Shown here one piece after another: positions 1 to 8,045 of a DNA stretch of 17,059 nucleotides (within the stretch, counting starts at the first letter, position 1; the number at the start of each line of letters is the position of its first letter). Made by a program: the position numbers and the translations under genes. The notes beneath the pieces were generated by a model that was not told where the DNA came from, did no database searches, and saw only the letters and a list, made by a program, of their open reading frames with translations. Source of the stretch: a virus (lineage: Duplodnaviria > Heunggongvirae > Uroviricota > Caudoviricetes); IMG/VR virus record IMGVR_UViG_2579778535_000004, positions 1-17,059 of that record; one strand, 5' to 3'.

Positions 1-304
1 CTTCTCCCAAACCAAGGTTTTCGAGAGCCGTTTTCACCGTGCCATCCGATTTGATATCACCAAACGGATTCTTGCGGCTTAACAGCAGCGCACGAAGCGC
101 GGTAAGCAGCTGGTCATGCCGCCCCTTCTCCAGGCTGGCACCGGATGCCTCCACCACGCTGCAGAGTTCTTCCTGCAACATGTCAAAGTAGTCATCATCC
201 AGATCGGTGGCAGGTGTGCCGGTCTGGGGGTTACCACGGGTAAAACCGTTCTTACCCGCGCCGAACTTATCCTTCTGCGCGGTTTTCGTGTCTATACGAT
301 GCAT
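1..304 (-). CDS. Putative phage tail fibre protein, N-terminal part (gene continues beyond the window start)
   Basis: Open frame from ATG (revcomp of 302-304) to position 1, translating [29 protein letters not shown]... A GGAG lies 6 nt upstream of the ATG. The tail-fibre assignment is from remembered similarity only and is unverified. Confidence 0.4.
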
Positions 305-307
305 GGA

Positions 308-649
308 TTACTCCGGATATTTAAAAATTACGTAGGTATGCGAAGGGCAGAGTTTGTTAAGCACACACTCGACAACGGTGTCGCCCCAGATACGCAGTGC
401 GGAATCACAGGGACCGGGTTTATTCAGCGCGTCAATCAGGCGATCGCGCTGGTCAAAGCAGTCATCTCCCACCACATAAGCCGTGATGGACGGGCGGAAA
501 GTGATTTTCCCCAGGTCTTCGGTATAGGGTTTGTCGCGGTTCGGGTATTCGTGCGTTTCCACACGACGACCGGTTCCCGCACTTTCTTCTTCAACCTTAA
601 ACGGCACACCGCGAAATGACGCGTCCTGAAGTCTGTCTTTCCACGTCAT
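308..649 (-). CDS. Mu N-like DNA circularisation protein, N-terminal domain only (truncated, about 113 aa versus about 490 aa in Mu)
   Basis: The track ORF 308..691 contains [19 protein letters not shown]...HEYP, typical of the DNA-circulation N-terminal domain. The likely start is the ATG at 647-649, which has GGAG 6 nt upstream. The stop at 308-310 is followed immediately by the next gene. Confidence 0.5.
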
Positions 650-709
650 ATAAACTCCGTACATAAAAAATCCCACCGGAGTGGGACTCATTAACAGATT
701 AATTTTTCA

Positions 710-2545
710 TTACCTGCCAAAGCGCGTATAGCCAACATCATGGCTGACATCAAAACCGCTGGATCGCGTTTCCATAACCCGCATACCCGGAGGCGAATTC
801 ACAAAAGAGACCTTGATCTCACCATCAACTTTTGGCGCAGAAGCTTTGTTGATCATGAAGGGATTCGGGCCTGTGGCACCGGAGGCGTTGTTTGCCTGAG
901 CCGGATCCACCGCCGGATAAGGAGTGTATCCCCGTGGCGGTATTCCCGTCCCATAAGCATCATAAGCACCCGCGCCCCACTGCGCCGAGTTAATGGCATC
1001 GACCGTGTCACCGGAACTGTCGGTAAACCATTCAATAATCGGCTTCAGCTTGTCCCACATATCCTGAAACCACTTAACAACCGGTCCCCAGTTATTGATC
1101 ACCATCCCCAGCGGCGACCAGGCAAAAACCTTCTTCAGAAGTTCCCAGCCTGCCTCAAAATAAGGACCAATAGTTTCCCAGAGCTTCTTGAAATAAGGTC
1201 CGACAACATCCCAGTTAGTGATAATTAATCCCGCAGCCAGAGCAATCGCCGTCGCAATCATGCCAATCGGCGTCATCGACATGATCCTGCTGACAATACT
1301 GATGGCACCGCCCACGCCCATCAATCCCAGTTTCAGAATCGCAAGACCGGCAGCAAGCCCGACGACGCCGCGAATAACCCGGGGATTTTCATCCGCAAAC
1401 TTCGTGAATTTCTCCCCCAACTCCCCCAGCCACTGCGTGATGTTCTTAGCGTCACCAGAAAATGCGCCGCCAATAGCCGCAAGGCCGTTAGTTGCGGTCC
1501 CCGTCATTGCCTCCCACAGGTTGGACAGCGTACCAAGCTGGGCCTGAACACGTTTATTCAGGCTGGCCTGTTTATTCATCTTCTGCTGGATCTGATCGTA
1601 GCCATCCTTTCCTTTATCGATCAGCGCATTGACCACCTGAAGGGTTTCGGCATCATCACCAAATATTGCCTTAAGTACACCGGTTCGCTTAACGTCGGTC
1701 AGTTTTCGCAGCTTTGCCAGTTGCCTGAACATGTTATCAAGACCGCCAAAACTCCCTTTGCCATCAGTAAAATCGAGCTGTACCCCGAGTTTCTGGCGGG
1801 CCATGATTTTATTGACGTCCCTGATTTTCTTAACGCTTAATCCGGACTGGATAACTTTTCGCAGGGCATTACCTGCCGACTCCCCGTTCATCCCCATTTG
1901 ATCCATCATGACACTGATGGGGGCAAGACTCTGTGCAGCCTGAAGACCGTCCTTGTTCACCATCTTCAGAACAGAGCTGGTTTTAGTGAAGAATGACAAC
2001 ATGTTGGTGTCGTCAACGCCCAGATAAAACGCCTTCTGAATTGTGTCGAACAGCCCCATCATGTCTTCTGAGGCCGTTCCGGTAGCATCCTGCATCTTTG
2101 CAGCAAACTCAGCAGCCGCTTCCGGTGTTTTTTTCAGTTGTACCGCAAGATAAGCTGTCGCTTTACCCACACCACCAAGAATGTTTTCTGCCGGGATCCC
2201 CTGACGCACCAGCATCTGCATCATGTTCTGGAAATCAGCCGTTGTACCGGGTAGCTGGTTACCCAGGCCAATAGCCAGTTTATTGATGTCCTGAAAGCTC
2301 TTTCCAACCTCGCCGTTCGCATCCATCATGGCGACTTTCAGCCCGGTGGCGGCGTTTTCCTGATCGGCATAAGATTTCAGGGAAAGCGTCAGACCTGCTG
2401 CCAGTCCGCCACCAAGCGCCAGCCCACCCTGTGACGCTTCTTCCGCCTGGCGTTTAAATCCCCGGATTTTCTTTTGCATTTTCGACAGCGCGGGAGAAAG
2501 CCTGTCGACACCGGTGATCAACGCCTTAAGCTCAAATTCAGCCAT
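710..2545 (-). CDS. Tail tape measure protein
   Basis: 611-aa ORF directly downstream of the chaperone pair. It has an Ala/Gly/Gln-rich helical N-terminal half and hydrophobic, Trp-rich C-terminal segments typical of tape measure proteins. Confidence 0.85.
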   Translation of the reverse strand: MAEFELKALITGVDRLSPALSKMQKKIRGFKRQAEEASQGGLALGGGLAAGLTLSLKSYADQENAATGLKVAMMDANGEVGKSFQDINKLAIGLGNQLPGTTADFQNMMQMLVRQGIPAENILGGVGKATAYLAVQLKKTPEAAAEFAAKMQDATGTASEDMMGLFDTIQKAFYLGVDDTNMLSFFTKTSSVLKMVNKDGLQAAQSLAPISVMMDQMGMNGESAGNALRKVIQSGLSVKKIRDVNKIMARQKLGVQLDFTDGKGSFGGLDNMFRQLAKLRKLTDVKRTGVLKAIFGDDAETLQVVNALIDKGKDGYDQIQQKMNKQASLNKRVQAQLGTLSNLWEAMTGTATNGLAAIGGAFSGDAKNITQWLGELGEKFTKFADENPRVIRGVVGLAAGLAILKLGLMGVGGAISIVSRIMSMTPIGMIATAIALAAGLIITNWDVVGPYFKKLWETIGPYFEAGWELLKKVFAWSPLGMVINNWGPVVKWFQDMWDKLKPIIEWFTDSSGDTVDAINSAQWGAGAYDAYGTGIPPRGYTPYPAVDPAQANNASGATGPNPFMINKASAPKVDGEIKVSFVNSPPGMRVMETRSSGFDVSHDVGYTRFGR

Positions 2546-2956
2546 GTGTGCGTTTCTCCTGCTCTATCCTGTTTGCCTGACTGACCAGTAAGGGAATTTC
2601 ACTGATCGGCATATTCAGCAATTCGAAAGGATTAATGCGCCAGTAACTGGCGCAGTCAAAGAAGCGATCAGTGAGGTATTCAGCCGTCAGGCCTGGAGGA
2701 AAAAACCAGCCACAAGCCACGCCGCTGCATTCAGGTCTGCCGGAGACATCTGGTCGACAGAGCTTTGCGGCACTTTCGCCAGCCGCACAATGTATTTCGA
2801 TACCACATGCGCCAGAAGTCTGACGGACTCATCCTGATTCATCTGGTAGGGATACCCCAGCTCGCGGACATCTTTCCCGGTGGGCTCATCAAACTCCAGT
2901 ACGGAGAGTGTCTCGCCATGAGCGGTAATCGGTTTCTTTAACTCAAGCTCTTTCAT
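2538..2956 (-). CDS. Tail assembly chaperone long form made by programmed -1 frameshift
   Basis: The -1 frame from the slippery site (plus-strand A-run 2701-2706) stays open to the stop at 2538-2540 and matches the C-terminal 55 aa of track ORF 2538..2720 (FFPPGLTAEYL...). The product ends 8 nt inside the tape-measure start. This is the arrangement conserved in phage tail chaperone genes. Confidence 0.55.
2687..2956 (-). CDS. Tail assembly chaperone (short product)
   Basis: 89-aa ORF between the tube and tape-measure genes. Its start overlaps the tube stop as TAATG. It ends just after a T TTT TTC slippery run. Confidence 0.75.
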   Translation of the reverse strand: MKELELKKPITAHGETLSVLEFDEPTGKDVRELGYPYQMNQDESVRLLAHVVSKYIVRLAKVPQSSVDQMSPADLNAAAWLVAGFFLQA

Positions 2957-3312
2957 TACTGGTAATCCCCTTCTTCACCGTGGAACTCAAGATCAACCGT
3001 CCCTTCTTCGGCATTATGGTTTGCTTCGCCGTGCAGCCAGGCAGACGACAGTACATAGACCTGACCGTTCGCCAGCTCGGCTGTGATGGTCATCTCATCA
3101 GACGAGGTGATTTTGCTCACCGGAAAATTCTTCGGCACCTTGAAGGTCCCTTTAACATAAGGCGCACGGTGAGTTTCCTTGCGGTCCACTGAACCGTCCA
3201 GGCCGATGATGTCATCATTGACCGTCCTGTTCATGGGCACCTCAATGCCGCCGGTCAGCGATAGCTGCTGACCGTCAATTTTGAAATAACAGGTTCCCCC
3301 GATACGGGCCAT
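2956..3312 (-). CDS. Tail tube protein (Mu gpM-like)
   Basis: 118-aa ORF placed immediately upstream of the chaperone and tape-measure genes. It has an AGGAG ribosome-binding site, and an upstream reading frame ends TAATG on its start. Confidence 0.65.
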   Translation of the reverse strand: MARIGGTCYFKIDGQQLSLTGGIEVPMNRTVNDDIIGLDGSVDRKETHRAPYVKGTFKVPKNFPVSKITSSDEMTITAELANGQVYVLSSAWLHGEANHNAEEGTVDLEFHGEEGDYQ

Positions 3313-3583
3313 TATGCGGACTCCTCTGAATACTGAAGACGGAACTGGTTAACCACGGCAAAGACACGCAACTGGTTAACATAGTCAGGCGGGAACAGCG
3401 TGTTCAGGCGGTTCGGATCGCTGGCATCACGCTCCACAACCAGGTACTGCTTAAAAAGTTCGTAGTTTTCCACGATCCCCGCACGCTCAAGCTGACGGTA
3501 GCGATGGTGTATTGAGGCTGGCTATCTTCCTTCGCGAAGGATGCAAGGTCTTCAAACTGCTTAGCTGTAAGAACCACTGTCAT
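3313..3583 (-). pseudogene. Gene remnant read in two frames, possibly the 3' end of a tail sheath gene at a deletion junction
   Basis: Minus-strand ATG at 3583 opens a 59-codon frame (MTVVLTAKQFEDLASFAKEDSQPQYT...) that stops at 3404. A second frame, open from about 3521, carries protein-like sequence (...ELFKQYLVVERDASDPNRLNTLFPPDYVNQLRVFAVVNQFRLQYSEESA) and ends TAATG on the tube start, but has no ATG. Confidence 0.3.
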
Positions 3584-3595
3584 ACCTCTGTCGTT

Positions 3596-3619
3596 AAAAA
3601 ACCTCGCTATTGCGAGGTT
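3596..3619 (-). terminator. Intrinsic terminator-like hairpin at the end of the lysis cassette
   Basis: Minus strand reads AACCTCGC-AATA-GCGAGGTT followed by TTTT. The Rz1 stop codon lies in the loop. Confidence 0.45.
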
Positions 3620-3864
3620 CGCGATTGCTCAATCGTTCGGATGTCCGCTTTATCTCTGTTACACTGCCCCAGCGCCAACAACAAGCTGACATTCAAATCC
3701 AAACTGCCTCCATAGGTCAGCGGCTCAGGAATAGCTGGTTGCAGTGTTTCAGTGGTCAGATTCGCCGGTAATGGCACCGCTGGAACTGGCACGTAAACTG
3801 TCCGCGTACTTCCGCAACCGGTCAGCAGCGGCAGCAGGCACAGCACGTGAAGCACAATCATCAT
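3607..3864 (-). CDS. o-spanin (Rz1-like outer-membrane lipoprotein)
   Basis: Alternate frame beginning inside the Rz gene: MMIVLHVLCLLPLLTGC with an LTGC lipobox, then a proline-rich stretch. About 38 codons are embedded in Rz and the frame runs on past the Rz stop. Confidence 0.6.
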   Translation of the reverse strand: MMIVLHVLCLLPLLTGCGSTRTVYVPVPAVPLPANLTTETLQPAIPEPLTYGGSLDLNVSLLLALGQCNRDKADIRTIEQSRTSQ

Positions 3865-4604: not shown

Positions 4605-4931
4605 TTACTCCTTAGAGCCACCAAACTTATTACCGATTACTCTCATTGCAGCCCCACGAATAGCATCGACACCGATCAACCCAACGCCACCACCAATGGC
4701 AACAGAAAGCGATTTAGGCCATCCGACATACTCAAGAGCGGATGCAAAAGTCAGCGTCAGAGCGCCACAGAGTAGAATTTCGAGTGTTTTTCGCTTCCAG
4801 CCACCACCACCGCCAAAATAGGCAATGCGCAAACCAGCCATAACAATCGACATAATCACTGCGCCCAGCGGTGTGTCTCCACGCCACCAGCTCTGGACCA
4901 ACTCCAGCCAGGTATTTGGGTTATGAGGCAT
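4605..4931 (-). CDS. Holin
   Basis: 108-aa ORF immediately upstream of the endolysin. It has two to three hydrophobic helices and a charged C-terminus, with GAGGTGAGAG upstream of the ATG. Confidence 0.7.
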   Translation of the reverse strand: MPHNPNTWLELVQSWWRGDTPLGAVIMSIVMAGLRIAYFGGGGGWKRKTLEILLCGALTLTFASALEYVGWPKSLSVAIGGGVGLIGVDAIRGAAMRVIGNKFGGSKE

Positions 4932-5210: not shown

Positions 5211-7001
5211 ATGAGCACAGAATTAAAACTAAAGAAAATTATGGCATCGTCTAAAATTGAGCCATTTATTAGACATATTCGTTTTCCTTTTTTTAAAAAC
5301 CTTGCAGAGGGTAGCAAGATTGATTTTGAGTATCCAATTACAGCATTAGTTGGTCAAAACGGAACCAATAAAAGTTCTGTTTTAAGAGCCCTATTCGGTT
5401 CTCCAAACAACTATTCTCTGGGTAGCTTATGGTTTTCTACAGATGTAGATGAGATTAAAGATGGTGGTCGTTCTAGATTTATTTATGGATATTATGACAA
5501 AGCTACTGATTCAATTGTTGAAGTAATTAAAACTCGAATCTCTAAAGAAAATGATCCTGATTACTGGGAACCATCCAGACCATTAAAATCCGACAACATG
5601 GCTCCAATGCCTAGTACAACAATCTCAACCAATCAACTAAGGACTAGGTGGAAAGCTATTGACAAAAATGTAATATATTTAGATTTCAGAGCAACTATCA
5701 GTGCATTTGATAAGTTCTTTTATCACTCTGATTTTCATACATACCCTAAGAAAGATTATCTTAGAAAACGCAGTCAGATGCTAAAAGACATTATAGATAA
5801 CGATCTTAAAAAATATCAACCTCATAAAGGAAAAAAAGACAAGCTATTTGTTAACACTTTATTAGAAAAAAGTAAGGTAGAGGCAATCAGCAAGATTTTA
5901 GGTCGCAAATACACAAGCATCCGCCTTATTGAACATAGCTTATTCACTAATGACAAAGCTCCCACAATTATTCTTCAATCAGAAAACTTAAAATATTCTG
6001 AAGCTTTTGCAGGCAGTGGGGAATTTGCTGTATCTATATTAGTGCATAAACTAATGGATAGCCCTGATGCATCTTTAATTCTGCTAGATGAACCTGAAGT
6101 ATCACTTCACCCTTCTGCTCAATGTCAATTGATGGAATTTTTATCAGAACAAGCACTTAAAAAGAAACATCAAATTGTCATATCCACACATTCATCAACA
6201 ATAGTAAAAGACTTGCCTAAAAATGCCATAAAATTATTCTGTCTGAATGATAAAATAGGAAAGGTTGATGTTCTTCAAAATGTCAGTCCAGAAGAATCTT
6301 TCTTTATTCTTGGTGAACGCATTGATAAAAGAACCGTTATTGTAGAAGATCGGTTAGCGAAGAGGTTTGTAGAAAAGGCGCTTAAAGCGGGTGGTGAAGC
6401 ATTATTAAACTCCTTCGAAGTAAAACATGTTCCTGGAGGAGCGGGAAGTATTCTTCAAACTTTGGCTGTGCCTTTATGTGTTGCCAATGTTAAAAACGTT
6501 ATTTTCTTATTAGATGGTGACCAATCGAGAACTGATGATTATCCAACTTCTGATTCCATACCAGAAAATCAAAACACAAACCTTCAAAACATCATAAAAA
6601 AAATAACCAATCAAGATATAAAATTTAGTTGTGATGGTTCTAATGGCTCATCAAATAACAATCAAAAATACAAAATGCAAAGAAATTTTATCGATTTCAT
6701 CCACGATAAAATTGCTTTTCTTCCTGTTTATACTCCTGAAGCATTTCTTATTGAGAATGTTCATGGTGATTATAAAGAATATAAAGATCAAATCCCCAAA
6801 AACATTCAAGATGCTAAAGAAATCACCAAAGAACTTTGTAAGTTAGACACAGGGTTGGAGAACGTTACCAGTGACGATATCTTTGAAACACAAATCAGAA
6901 TTCTTAATAAAATACCAAATAATCATGAAGTGTTAACAAAAACTCGAGAGTTGCTGCAAATCTTTTTAGATAATGATACTATCAGACCAAGAGTGAGGTA
7001 G
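5211..7001 (+). CDS. Predicted OLD/Gabija-GajA-like nuclease: N-terminal ABC-type ATPase fused to a C-terminal TOPRIM domain
   Basis: 596-aa ORF with a P-loop LVGQNGTNKSS, Walker B ILLDEPEVSLHP, a STHS H-loop-like motif, and a C-terminal TOPRIM pattern (TVIVEDRLAKRF...NVIFLLDGDQS, about 60 aa apart). Hand counts give about 27-30% GC here versus about 45-55% in flanking lines. Confidence 0.65.
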   Translation: MSTELKLKKIMASSKIEPFIRHIRFPFFKNLAEGSKIDFEYPITALVGQNGTNKSSVLRALFGSPNNYSLGSLWFSTDVDEIKDGGRSRFIYGYYDKATDSIVEVIKTRISKENDPDYWEPSRPLKSDNMAPMPSTTISTNQLRTRWKAIDKNVIYLDFRATISAFDKFFYHSDFHTYPKKDYLRKRSQMLKDIIDNDLKKYQPHKGKKDKLFVNTLLEKSKVEAISKILGRKYTSIRLIEHSLFTNDKAPTIILQSENLKYSEAFAGSGEFAVSILVHKLMDSPDASLILLDEPEVSLHPSAQCQLMEFLSEQALKKKHQIVISTHSSTIVKDLPKNAIKLFCLNDKIGKVDVLQNVSPEESFFILGERIDKRTVIVEDRLAKRFVEKALKAGGEALLNSFEVKHVPGGAGSILQTLAVPLCVANVKNVIFLLDGDQSRTDDYPTSDSIPENQNTNLQNIIKKITNQDIKFSCDGSNGSSNNNQKYKMQRNFIDFIHDKIAFLPVYTPEAFLIENVHGDYKEYKDQIPKNIQDAKEITKELCKLDTGLENVTSDDIFETQIRILNKIPNNHEVLTKTRELLQIFLDNDTIRPRVR

Positions 7002-7004
7002 ATA

Positions 7005-8045
7005 ATGGCTAAAAAGATACACGTTTACGATTTCTTTTCCGGCTGCGGCGGAACCAGTGTAGGCCTAAAAGCGGTGGGAATGGAAATTATTTTCGGTTTA
7101 GATATTGATCTAGACTCCGCTAACACCTTTAAAATGAATAATCCATTTGCACATTTTATCAATGGTGATATCAAAGATACACACGTTGAGGAAATTAAGC
7201 ATCTGGTTTGTGCGTCAACACAAAGCAAAGCTCTAACCCTATTTTGTGGTTGTGCTCCATGTCAACCATTCTCGAAACAAAATAAAATACGGAACGAGGA
7301 TGATCCGAGAAAAGATCTGCTTACTGAGTTTGCACGGTTTGTCTCTTATTATACGCCAGACTTTGTACTGGTAGAGAATGTACCAGGAATCCAAAATGTC
7401 GATATTAACAATGGAAATTTCCAGAAATTTCTTGAGATTTTAGCACATCATCACTACAACGTTGATTTTGGTGTGATTCCTGCGTTGTGGTTCGGGGTTC
7501 CTCAAACACGTGAACGTTTTGTTTTACTGGCGTCAAAACACACGAATATTAAGCTTCCATCACAAACTCATGATGGGTTAAAAACTCCGTATGCAACTGT
7601 CAGAGACTGGATCGGCGGATTACCTCCTATTGCTGCCGGTGAAACTCATAAAGATGTTATGGATCATACAGCAGCCAAACTATCTGATCTAAATATTAAA
7701 CGTATTAAAGCGACTCCTGAGGGAAAAGGTAGAGAATCTTGGCCTGAAGAACTTATACTAAAATGCCATAAAAAATATAAAGGGCATACTGATGTTTATG
7801 GACGGCTTTCTTGGGACAAACCAGCAAGTGGATTAACAACTAGATGTATAAGCTATTCGAATGGACGTTTCGGACATCCAGAGCAAGATAGGGCTATTTC
7901 TGTTAGAGAGGCTGCGTTATTACAGACTTTCCCATTAGACTATTCCTTCACAGGCTCTTTAGTCTCGAAAGCCAAACAGATAGGGAATGCAGTCCCTCCC
8001 AAGATGGCTGAAGCTCTTGGAAGGGCTATCATCGCATCACTTTAA
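7005..8045 (+). CDS. DNA (cytosine-5)-methyltransferase
   Basis: Motif I FSGCGG, motif IV GCAPCQPFS with the catalytic Cys, motif VI LVENVPG, motif VIII PQTRERF, motif X QIGNAVPP, in canonical order. The ATG is 4 nt after the upstream stop, so the two genes are probably co-translated. Confidence 0.9.
   Translation: MAKKIHVYDFFSGCGGTSVGLKAVGMEIIFGLDIDLDSANTFKMNNPFAHFINGDIKDTHVEEIKHLVCASTQSKALTLFCGCAPCQPFSKQNKIRNEDDPRKDLLTEFARFVSYYTPDFVLVENVPGIQNVDINNGNFQKFLEILAHHHYNVDFGVIPALWFGVPQTRERFVLLASKHTNIKLPSQTHDGLKTPYATVRDWIGGLPPIAAGETHKDVMDHTAAKLSDLNIKRIKATPEGKGRESWPEELILKCHKKYKGHTDVYGRLSWDKPASGLTTRCISYSNGRFGHPEQDRAISVREAALLQTFPLDYSFTGSLVSKAKQIGNAVPPKMAEALGRAIIASL

Follow-up and report, generated by a model that had tools for sequence, protein, structure and literature searches.

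We conclude that the chaperone gene described here very probably employs a programmed -1 ribosomal frameshift of the tail-assembly-chaperone type, the arrangement known from lambda G/GT and P2 E/E+E'. The gene lies in a prophage, and the window that we analysed is the whole stretch of 17,059 nt. In the proposed mechanism most ribosomes would stop at the TGA at 2689..2687 and release an 89-aa chaperone. In a minority of ribosomes the two tRNA-Phe on T_TTT_TTC (2705..2699) would slip back one base, and these ribosomes would read 53 further codons in the -1 frame up to the stop TGA 2540..2538 at the start of the tape measure gene, producing a 139-aa fusion. Lambda and P2 suggest by analogy that the shared N-terminal domain would coat the tape measure protein, that the -1-encoded domain would recruit the tube protein, and that tail assembly would require the long product to be made at a fixed, low proportion to the short one. 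Judged by sequence comparison, the frameshift site is real, strongly conserved and ordinary, with nothing new in kind. The main value of the result is the correction of annotation; it adds no new biology.

As read from the sequence, all features of the chaperone locus are on the minus strand (Table 1), a point that a preliminary description of this DNA had left out. The tube, chaperone and tape measure genes follow one another in this order and in the same orientation, which is a placement of the G/GT type. The TAA of the tube gene and the ATG of the chaperone gene share one base (TAATG). The ATG of the tape measure gene is found within ATGGCTGA, which also contains the stop of the predicted fusion, and an AGGAG at 2560..2556, 10 nt 5' of this ATG, is located within the coding region of the T-equivalent extension. 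The preliminary description had identified the gene as a tail assembly chaperone. This identification holds, since the 89-aa product matches the Pfam HMM PF10109 (Phage_TAC_7) with E=1.9e-16 and 60.3 bits against a cutoff of 25, residues 4-86 aligning with positions 2-78 of the 79 in the profile, and the gene is flanked by those for PF10618 and PF10145 proteins. The same product is named 'phage tail assembly protein' by PGAP in E. coli genomes. Both family and position between the tube and tape measure genes thus support the assignment of the 89-codon gene.

Table 1. Features of the chaperone locus (positions in the 17,059-nt window)
Feature	Position	Strand	Details
Tail tube gene	2956..3312	-	118 aa; PF10618 Tail_tube E=2.4e-33; phrog_185 tail tube protein E=1.1e-44
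Short chaperone ORF ('G'/'E' equivalent)	2687..2956	-	89 aa, zero frame; ATG 2956, TGA 2689..2687
Mechanically called ORF	2538..2720	-	60 aa, GTG start; not regarded as a separate gene
Slippery heptamer T_TTT_TTC	2699..2705	-	Zero-frame phase GG[T TTT TTC]; encodes Phe85-Phe86
-1 frame extension ('T'/E' equivalent)	2538..2699	-	53 codons (PPGLTAEYLTDRFFDCASYWRINPFELLNMPISEIPLLVSQANRIEQEKRTHG) + TGA 2540..2538
Predicted frameshift fusion (GT/E+E' equivalent)	2538..2956	-	139 aa = 86 zero-frame + 53 -1-frame
Tape measure gene	710..2545	-	611 aa; ATG 2545; PF10145 E=1.3e-26; phrog_28 and phrog_17727 tail length tape measure protein

The zero-frame 3' end of the chaperone gene reads GCT GGT TTT TTC CTC CAG GCC TGA. 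The heptamer is in X_XXY_YYZ phase. The zero-frame stop follows three codons later, in agreement with the preliminary description, which placed the end of the frame shortly after T TTT TTC. The -1 frame is open from 2828 to 2541, across the heptamer. With the first TTT of the heptamer as codon 1, its length is 55 codons, in agreement with the length of about 55 given earlier, of which 53 encode new residues after the shift. Its stop inside ATGGCTGA creates the overlap with the tape measure start that had also been noticed, and this overlap with the tape measure ORF amounts to 8 nt. The +1 frame is shut 2 codons beyond the zero-frame stop, leaving -1 as the open frame. The predicted tryptic peptide across the shift junction is VPQSSVDQMSPADLNAAAWLVAGFFPPGLTAEYLTDR.

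In order to estimate how often such an arrangement is expected by chance, the long ORFs of the whole window, 4616 codons, were used. They contain 20 in-frame X_XXY_YYZ heptamers, about 1 per 230 codons. The frequency of -1-frame stops is 0.078 per codon, which gives a probability of ~0.012 that a -1 frame stays open for at least 55 codons. Only T_TTT_TTC at 2705..2699, among the 20 heptamers, stands at the 3' end of a gene and is followed by a -1 frame that reaches the start of the next gene exactly. Because this arrangement is conserved in homologues, it is far beyond chance.

In nearly all public annotations the 141 nt that separate the tape measure gene from the chaperone stop are empty, as expected if this stretch were a non-coding spacer with a -1 frame open by chance and no second product were made. 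The sequence comparisons effectively refute this reading. The chance of an open frame of this length is low in the window alone (see above), and no homologue contains a stop in the -1 frame. The pN/pS ratio is 0.31 in the -1 frame versus 1.15 and 1.12 in the other two frames; in the two homologue groups compared, the -1 frame gave 0.31 and 0.28 and the other frames 1.1-1.6. An excess of third-position substitutions was found in both groups (42 of 90 variable columns in group A and 40 of 72 in group B), and similarity of the -1-frame protein is detectable at ~40% identity. By these measures the extension evolves as a protein in the -1 frame only and is under purifying selection.

The heptamer is conserved along with the extension. 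The region is 98-99% identical to that of the Shigella phages SfI, SfV and SfII and to that of SKA5. All nine phage records compared (SfV, SKA5, EPP-1, AH07, F1055, SfIV, ST64B, phiP27 and BgVeeders33), some at ~40% protein identity, encode the homologous Phe-Phe with an in-frame TTTTTTC or TTTTTTT. In eight of the nine the stop of the -1 ORF is within ATGGCTGA at the tape measure start, and in BgVeeders33 it falls 4 nt short of it. Of 32 loci in genomes of different bacterial species, 31 keep the arrangement, the sole exception being a pseudogene in Serratia symbiotica, and the heptamer with its -1 extension is kept in 77 of 80 viral contigs. A tblastn search with the fused product returned two-piece, full-length matches in phages at ~40% identity. 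The preliminary description had spoken of a conserved two-product arrangement, and down to this identity an in-phase heptamer and a -1 extension are indeed kept. It had also named the lack of the overlapping -1 frame in homologues as an observation that would count against it; the frame is present in them, and its claim survives, as does every other part of its reading that could be checked.

Protein alignments show that the Phe-Phe at the slip site is invariant. Among the aligned relatives the preceding codon is Gly, Asn, Arg or Ser depending on lineage, with T as third base throughout, and the first Phe codon is TTT without exception. As judged from these alignments, the heptamer is under selection at the nucleotide level. 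The zero-frame tail past the slip site is variable (3, 8, 9, 12, 20, 21 or 26 codons in the homologues), and the length of the -1 extension is stable at 50-57 codons. The extension has a conserved core, F/Y-W-R/K-I/L/V-N/D-P, which is FWRINP in many homologues. The run of T is of two lengths: SfV-type relatives have T6 and ST64B-type relatives T7. Three natural variants with GGG instead of GGT ahead of the Phe-Phe were seen in the viral-contig set.

The mechanically called 60-aa ORF might instead be read as an independent small gene that is translated from its own GTG at 2720. Such a start codon is present, and some phage records treat the second half of the fusion in this way: in ON470584.1 the equivalent ORF is listed as a 'hypothetical protein', and in PHROGs it makes up a separate family of 'unknown function', phrog_32181. 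We regard an independent gene as highly unlikely. The GTG falls out of the zero-frame codons GCG TGG and no Shine-Dalgarno-like sequence was found upstream of it. Of 30 homologues, 22 lack any ATG, GTG or TTG between the upstream stop of the -1 frame and the slip site, and no Shine-Dalgarno-like sequence precedes the starts in the other 8. The first start 3' of the slip site is usually at least 28 codons into the conserved domain. The GTG start is therefore an artefact, in view of the 22 homologues that lack any start upstream of the slip site, as the preliminary description had stated for the start of a track ORF, which is this 60-aa ORF. A search of NCBIfam found no family that matches either the fusion or the 60-aa ORF.

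Transcriptional slippage could yield the same fusion: RNA polymerase would insert an extra U while copying the T6 run, some of the mRNAs would then have both parts in a single frame, and no slip of the ribosome would be needed. Both types of relatives have a homopolymer here, T6 or T7, and the T kept at the preceding wobble position also extends the T run. The resulting protein (…GFFPPGL…) would be identical and, for this reason, the comparative evidence, i.e. conservation and pN/pS, is blind to the difference between ribosomal and transcriptional slippage. For efficient slippage, bacterial RNA polymerase generally requires a run of at least about 8-9. Both observed variants are U_UU.U_UU.Y heptamers. 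As members of the H_HH.U_UU.Y class, U_UU.U_UU.C and U_UU.U_UU.U count among the -1 heptamers with the highest slippage efficiencies measured in E. coli (PMC4066793). At chaperone sites homologous or analogous to this one the shift is taken to be ribosomal (PMC5009743, PMC3091744), and the lambda site, G_GGA_AAG, is not a homopolymer (PMC5009743). Consequently we consider transcriptional slippage unlikely and favor ribosomal frameshifting.

We also searched for elements that could stimulate a ribosomal shift. The 30 nt 5' of the heptamer contain no GGAG, GAGG or AGGA that could serve as a Shine-Dalgarno-like element. The 99 nt 3' of the heptamer fold somewhat better than shuffled sequences (z = -2.9), and the fold of a 211-nt context has z = -1.5. 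An 8-bp hairpin, TGCGCCAG-TTA-CTGGCGCA (2654..2636), starts 44 nt past the heptamer and is enclosed by a 9-bp pairing of CACTGATCG with CGATCAGTG; this enclosing helix is not conserved. RNAalifold across 15 relatives found a single compensatory change in the hairpin and no other variation, apart from the divergent relatives, in which the pairing is disrupted. Its conservation can be explained by the conserved residues C-A-S-Y-W-R that it encodes. With essentially no covariation and a distance of 44 nt, the hairpin was rejected as a supported stimulator. An Rfam scan of 2300..3100 gave only a sub-threshold chance match to a CRISPR repeat. Slippage efficiency is thus unpredictable here, since neither a supported stimulatory structure nor a Shine-Dalgarno-like element was found, and the minor share that we assign to the fusion is an expectation. 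To our knowledge the chaperone frameshift sites of lambda and P2 likewise lack stimulators.

Structure-based searches were carried out with the predicted fusion. The best viral fold matches in BFVD are chaperones of the tape measure or of tail assembly. The T-domain part of the structure model has low confidence (pLDDT 45-58). A search of the PDB by sequence gave only chance matches to light-harvesting proteins, and a search by fold gave no match at E <=0.001.

Existing annotations would be changed by this result. Records of SfV, SfI, SfII, SfIV, ST64B and phiP27 list only the short 'phage tail assembly protein', and a frameshift is not mentioned in the SfI or SfIV genome papers. The same is true of the PGAP-annotated prophage AR_0055, from one of about 1100 E. 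coli genomes with this region, for which only the short product is given. The unannotated gap before the tape measure gene is 141 nt, or 84 nt in the ST64B type. Joining the two frames at the heptamer would give the correct 139-aa product. Some entries in a protein database (P0001-P0006, 107-139 aa) appear already fused. We examined them as natural single-frame genes and rejected them as noisy assemblies: each comes from one contig, all but one have a single member sequence, and several internal frame errors are present.

The prophage around the locus has lost its sheath, baseplate and head genes, and the tail module is truncated on both sides. The tube, chaperone and tape measure genes are intact, 98-99% identical to those of functional phages, and are located directly downstream of the lysis genes. 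The slip site can probably still be decoded here. Because the prophage has lost most of its tail genes, the role of the site in this genome is probably vestigial, and it would be unable to contribute to the building of a tail. One could imagine that the tube-chaperone-tape measure block has been kept and is expressed for a new role, e.g. to form assembly-incompetent complexes of the tube, chaperone and tape measure proteins that would interfere with the tails of related phages during superinfection, in which case the frameshift ratio would still matter. We find this very doubtful; the intact reading frames are all that speaks for it, and a recent deletion explains them equally well.

Among the known systems, E. 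coli dnaX and the IS3-family elements share with this site an X_XXY_YYZ tandem-slippage heptamer and E. coli-type ribosomes. Frameshifting at these -1 sites depends on a Shine-Dalgarno-like element 5' of the heptamer, on a hairpin or pseudoknot that follows it after 5-9 nt, or on both. Here neither a conserved hairpin or pseudoknot at 5-9 nt nor a Shine-Dalgarno-like element 6-17 nt upstream was found, and the locus does not belong to the dnaX/IS3 type. The gpG/gpGT pair of lambda (Levin et al. 1993; Xu, Hendrix and Duda 2004, 2013, 2014, as summarised in PMC5009743) follows the same logic, with its genes directly upstream of the tape measure gene, and both proteins are absent from the virion (PMC5009743). 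Lambda differs in its non-contractile tail, its heptamer G_GGA_AAG and its larger proteins, which have no detectable sequence similarity to those studied here.

The Pfam name of PF10109, 'E, or 41 or 14', also covers Mu gp41, and the neighbours sheath L, tube M, the gp38-like gene, tape measure gp42 and N are homologous. A weak fold match to Mu FS-gp41 (UniProt P0DJY4, 'Probable tail assembly protein FS-gp41') was obtained at a non-significant E=0.025. Mu gains its extension, which is in the +1 frame, through a -2 shift (PMC5009743), and our reading of the Mu sequence confirmed an open extension in the +1 frame. In the present locus, in contrast, the -1 frame is open, which places it outside the Mu gp41 (-2 frameshift) subtype.

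The closest counterpart is E/E+E' of P2, whose frameshift is described as established (PMC3091744); the comparison draws on Christie et al. 2002, as reported in PMC3091744, and on the annotation of NC_001895. P2 gpE is likewise a PF10109 protein of a contractile-tail phage, encoded between the tube and tape measure genes. The P2 products are 91 and 142 aa long, compared with 89 and 139 aa here, and the P2 heptamer GG[T TTT TTG] has the same phase after a Gly codon as GG[T TTT TTC]. The stop of the P2 fusion overlaps the start of the tape measure gene (T) by the same 8 nt, and no downstream structure is known in either case. P2 E+E' aligns colinearly with the fused-product profile, including the motif FHWPPSELYPMSLTEL versus YWRINPFELLNMPISEI. 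The last base of the heptamer is G in P2 but C here (T in ST64B-type relatives), the sequences share very little identity (E=0.63 in pairwise BLASTP, 11.8 bits against the profile), and the remaining tail module here is Mu/SfV-like rather than P2-like. With a T-rich -1 heptamer after Gly and a predicted fusion of ~140 aa that overlaps the tape measure gene, the locus fits the P2 E/E+E' subtype. PF10109 proteins would thus acquire their extensions by different routes: a -1 shift on U_UUU_UUG in P2, a predicted -1 shift on U_UUU_UUC or U_UUU_UUU in the phages described here, and a -2 shift in Mu.

A frameshift site is present at 2538-2956, and the sequence evidence supports its reading as a programmed -1 frameshift in the tail assembly chaperone gene, with two predicted products. 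All relevant genes lie on the minus strand, the only point left unstated by a preliminary description that was otherwise correct in its coordinates and account of this region. In the zero frame the chaperone ORF ends ...GCT GGT TTT TTC CTC CAG GCC TGA, so that only three codons separate T_TTT_TTC, which is in X_XXY_YYZ phase, from the stop. The -1 frame opens at 2828 and, taking the heptamer's first TTT as codon 1, runs for 55 codons, adding 53 residues after the shift; both the early zero-frame stop and a -1 frame of about 55 codons overlapping the tape measure start had been proposed. Its TGA lies within ATGGCTGA, which also holds the tape measure ATG (2545), giving an 8-nt overlap. The AGGAG that would serve this ATG sits within the extension.

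Features of the chaperone region and its surroundings
Feature	Position	Strand	Remark
Tail sheath C-terminus remnant, 53 aa	3473..3312	-	last 53 codons of sheath gene
Tail tube gene, 118 aa	3312..2956	-	PF10618, E=2.4e-33
Chaperone ORF, 89 aa	2956..2687	-	PF10109 ('Phage tail assembly chaperone proteins, E, or 41 or 14'), 60.3 bits (cutoff 25)
Slippery heptamer T_TTT_TTC	2705..2699	-	read from sequence
Predicted fusion, 139 aa	2956..2538	-	chaperone zero frame plus -1 extension
Mechanical ORF, 60 aa	2538..2720	-	GTG start
Extension stop TGA	2540..2538	-	
AGGAG	2560..2556	-	
8-bp hairpin	2654..2636	-	TGCGCCAG-TTA-CTGGCGCA
9-bp inverted repeat	2665..2673 pairing to 2600..2608		CACTGATCG with CGATCAGTG
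Tape measure gene, 611 aa	2545..710	-	PF10145
Chimeric ORF	691..308	-	DNA_circ_N residues 21-95, then baseplate-wedge-like C-terminus
Holin ORF	4605..4931	-	
ATP-dependent nuclease (596 aa) and DNA cytosine methyltransferase (346 aa) genes	5211..8045	+	names from PGAP annotation of matching E. coli locus

In the 4616 codons of the window's long ORFs there are 20 in-phase X_XXY_YYZ heptamers, and the -1 frames of these ORFs have a mean of one stop per 13 codons, so that the probability of 55 open codons in a row is ∼0.012. Only the slip site, among the 20, is at a gene 3′ end with a -1 frame reaching exactly the start of the next gene. In the holin ORF, codon 4 has an in-phase CCCAAAT, after which the -1 frame stays open for 62 codons; its 5′-terminal position in the gene and its weak motif make chance the most likely explanation.

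Over the 1.1 kb spanning the slip site, Shigella flexneri serotype-converting phages SfI, SfV and SfII and Escherichia phages SKA5 and vB_EcoM-689R6 show 98-99% identity to the window, and of 5426 complete E. coli genomes 1117 carry the region. Using the fused product as query, tblastn returned 30 phage records, 23 with two-piece, two-frame matches jointly covering at least 80% of the query, including SfIV, ST64B, phiP27, F1055 and Burkholderia phage BgVeeders33 at ∼40% identity. Nine phage loci were read directly. At the homologous Phe-Phe all carry an in-phase heptamer, TTTTTTC in the SfV type and TTTTTTT in the ST64B type, and in all the -1 ORF ends at the tape measure start (in ATGGCTGA in eight, just before the start in BgVeeders33). 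When one genome per species was scanned, 32 loci emerged, all in Enterobacterales; 31 retain the arrangement, and in the remaining one, from the endosymbiont Serratia symbiotica, the gene is disrupted. Lack of the overlapping -1 frame in homologues had been named as evidence against the site; the frame is present in these nine phage and 31 genome loci, and this strong comparative evidence supports the interpretation as a conserved two-product chaperone arrangement.

Among 80 near-identical viral contigs, 77 retain TTTTTTC and one is chimeric. In three (L068, L098 and L104, around 1449-1458) GGG replaces GGT ahead of the T run, leaving only the U_UU.Y tetramer, and one of these also has TTT TTT CTC; decay of the prophage, sequencing error or a lower-efficiency variant could each account for them. 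Thirteen contigs (among loci L048-L127) have lost the TGA inside ATGGCTGA; their extension is two codons longer (…THGGI) and ends at GAATTTGA within the tape measure gene. In protein alignments Phe85-Phe86 is invariant. The preceding codon encodes Gly, Asn, Arg or Ser by lineage, yet ends in T in all, and the first Phe codon is TTT throughout the homologues while wobble positions nearby vary freely. Past the slip site the zero-frame tail can be anywhere between 3 and 26 codons long, but the -1 extension is steady at 50-57 codons. These features support selection acting on the slip site itself. The extension has a conserved core, F/Y-W-R/K-I/L/V-N/D-P (FWRINP in many).

The extension carries a coding signal. 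Mean pN/pS was 0.31 in the -1 frame, 1.15 in the zero frame and 1.12 in the +1 frame for 10 SfV-type sequences, and 0.28, 1.26 and 1.61, respectively, for five ST64B-type sequences. Substitutions are concentrated at third codon positions of the -1 frame, and none of the 15 sequences has a -1-frame stop in the extension. This signal rejects a non-coding spacer after the chaperone stop. Separate initiation of the extension was also rejected: the GTG at 2720 has no Shine-Dalgarno-like sequence, and 22 of 30 homologues lack any ATG, GTG or TTG in the -1 frame between the upstream stop and the slip site. In the other eight, the start codon results from a zero-frame Trp codon lying five codons before that site. 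The listed start of the 60-aa ORF is thus an artefact, as had been suggested.

Transcriptional slippage on the T6/T7 run would yield the same protein as ribosomal slippage, and computation cannot separate the two for that reason. It is nevertheless an unlikely source of the fusion, since T6/T7 is a short run, both the P2 homologue and the lambda analogue of this site are regarded as ribosomal (PMC5009743, PMC3091744), and the two variants observed are exactly the U_UU.U_UU.Y heptamers. These fall within H_HH.U_UU.Y, which Sharma et al. found to be the most efficient -1 slippage class in E. coli, active at >0.1% even without stimulators (PMC4066793).

The predicted frameshift at this site bears on public annotation, and correcting that annotation is its practical value. 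No inspected record of the locus annotates a frameshift; the records list the short protein and then leave 141 nt empty. ON470584.1 (Escherichia phage vB_EcoM-689R6; L128:537-719) differs in entering the -1 ORF as a 60-aa 'hypothetical protein' in its own right. The window's mechanical ORF is the same one, and its PHROGs family is phrog_32181 ('unknown function', E=6.5e-41). The stand-alone protein in both is a propagated annotation artefact. In ST64B (L009, AY055382.1, 689-1024) the sb15 CDS starts at an ATT that precedes, by nine bases, the GTG start of the near-identical phage F1055; the deposited start is probably wrong.

The window is colinear with SfV from 410 to 3501, an interval that has one end inside the N-terminal portion of orf15 (DNA circulation protein) and at the other takes in the final 189 nt of the sheath gene. 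This SfV-like tail module is a 3.1-kb fragment with deletions on either side and junctions near 410-413 and 3501-3648. Positions 1..413 match a related prophage's tail protein gene and its neighbour ymfQ, and the sequence from 3648 onward matches the lysis genes of that prophage. Head genes, most of the sheath gene and most baseplate genes have thus been lost, and the prophage is defective. The tube, chaperone and tape measure genes are intact and run in the same direction as the lysis genes that lie immediately upstream; their transcription may persist, but they cannot build a tail. This exact architecture was absent from all complete E. coli genomes searched. Between the antiterminator Q and holin genes, the nuclease and methyltransferase genes occupy the opposite strand and resemble cargo that has entered the late region.

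No Shine-Dalgarno-like element was found within 30 nt upstream of the heptamer, and Rfam searches found nothing. The perfect hairpin inside the extension, enclosed by the inverted repeat, has a regional fold z-score of -2.9. Its first base is 44 nt past the heptamer, too distant for a classical stimulator, and across 15 sequences it is near-invariant in close relatives and broken in divergent ones, with one compensatory change. Since it coincides with the conserved residues C-A-S-Y-W-R, we do not count it as supported. In the AlphaFold model of the fusion (pLDDT 72.5 overall) the N-terminal domain is confident and the extension poor (45-58 over the last 50 residues). Sequence and fold searches found no match among solved structures; the best-ranking viral fold hits are chaperones of the tape measure or of tail assembly, with Mu FS-gp41 among the viral matches at a non-significant E=0.025.

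The site is already known in kind: its class is well known and includes a proven relative from the same protein family. Genes neighbouring the Mu chaperone are homologous to those of the window's tail module, but the Mu extension is in the +1 frame, reportedly reached through a -2 shift (PMC5009743), whereas the +1 frame here closes at once. The closest known system is P2 E/E+E′, which shares the Pfam family. The P2 products are 91 and 142 aa compared with 89 and 139 aa here, the heptamers are GG[T TTT TTG] and GG[T TTT TTC], respectively, and the fusion stop overlaps the tape measure start by 8 nt in both. A profile of 26 fused products aligns end to end with P2 E+E′ (11.8 bits), with the slip sites coinciding and FHWPPSELYPMSLTEL paired with YWRINPFELLNMPISEI. 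At the lambda and P2 sites the heptamer acts alone (PMC3091744); with no supported stimulator, the present site resembles them.
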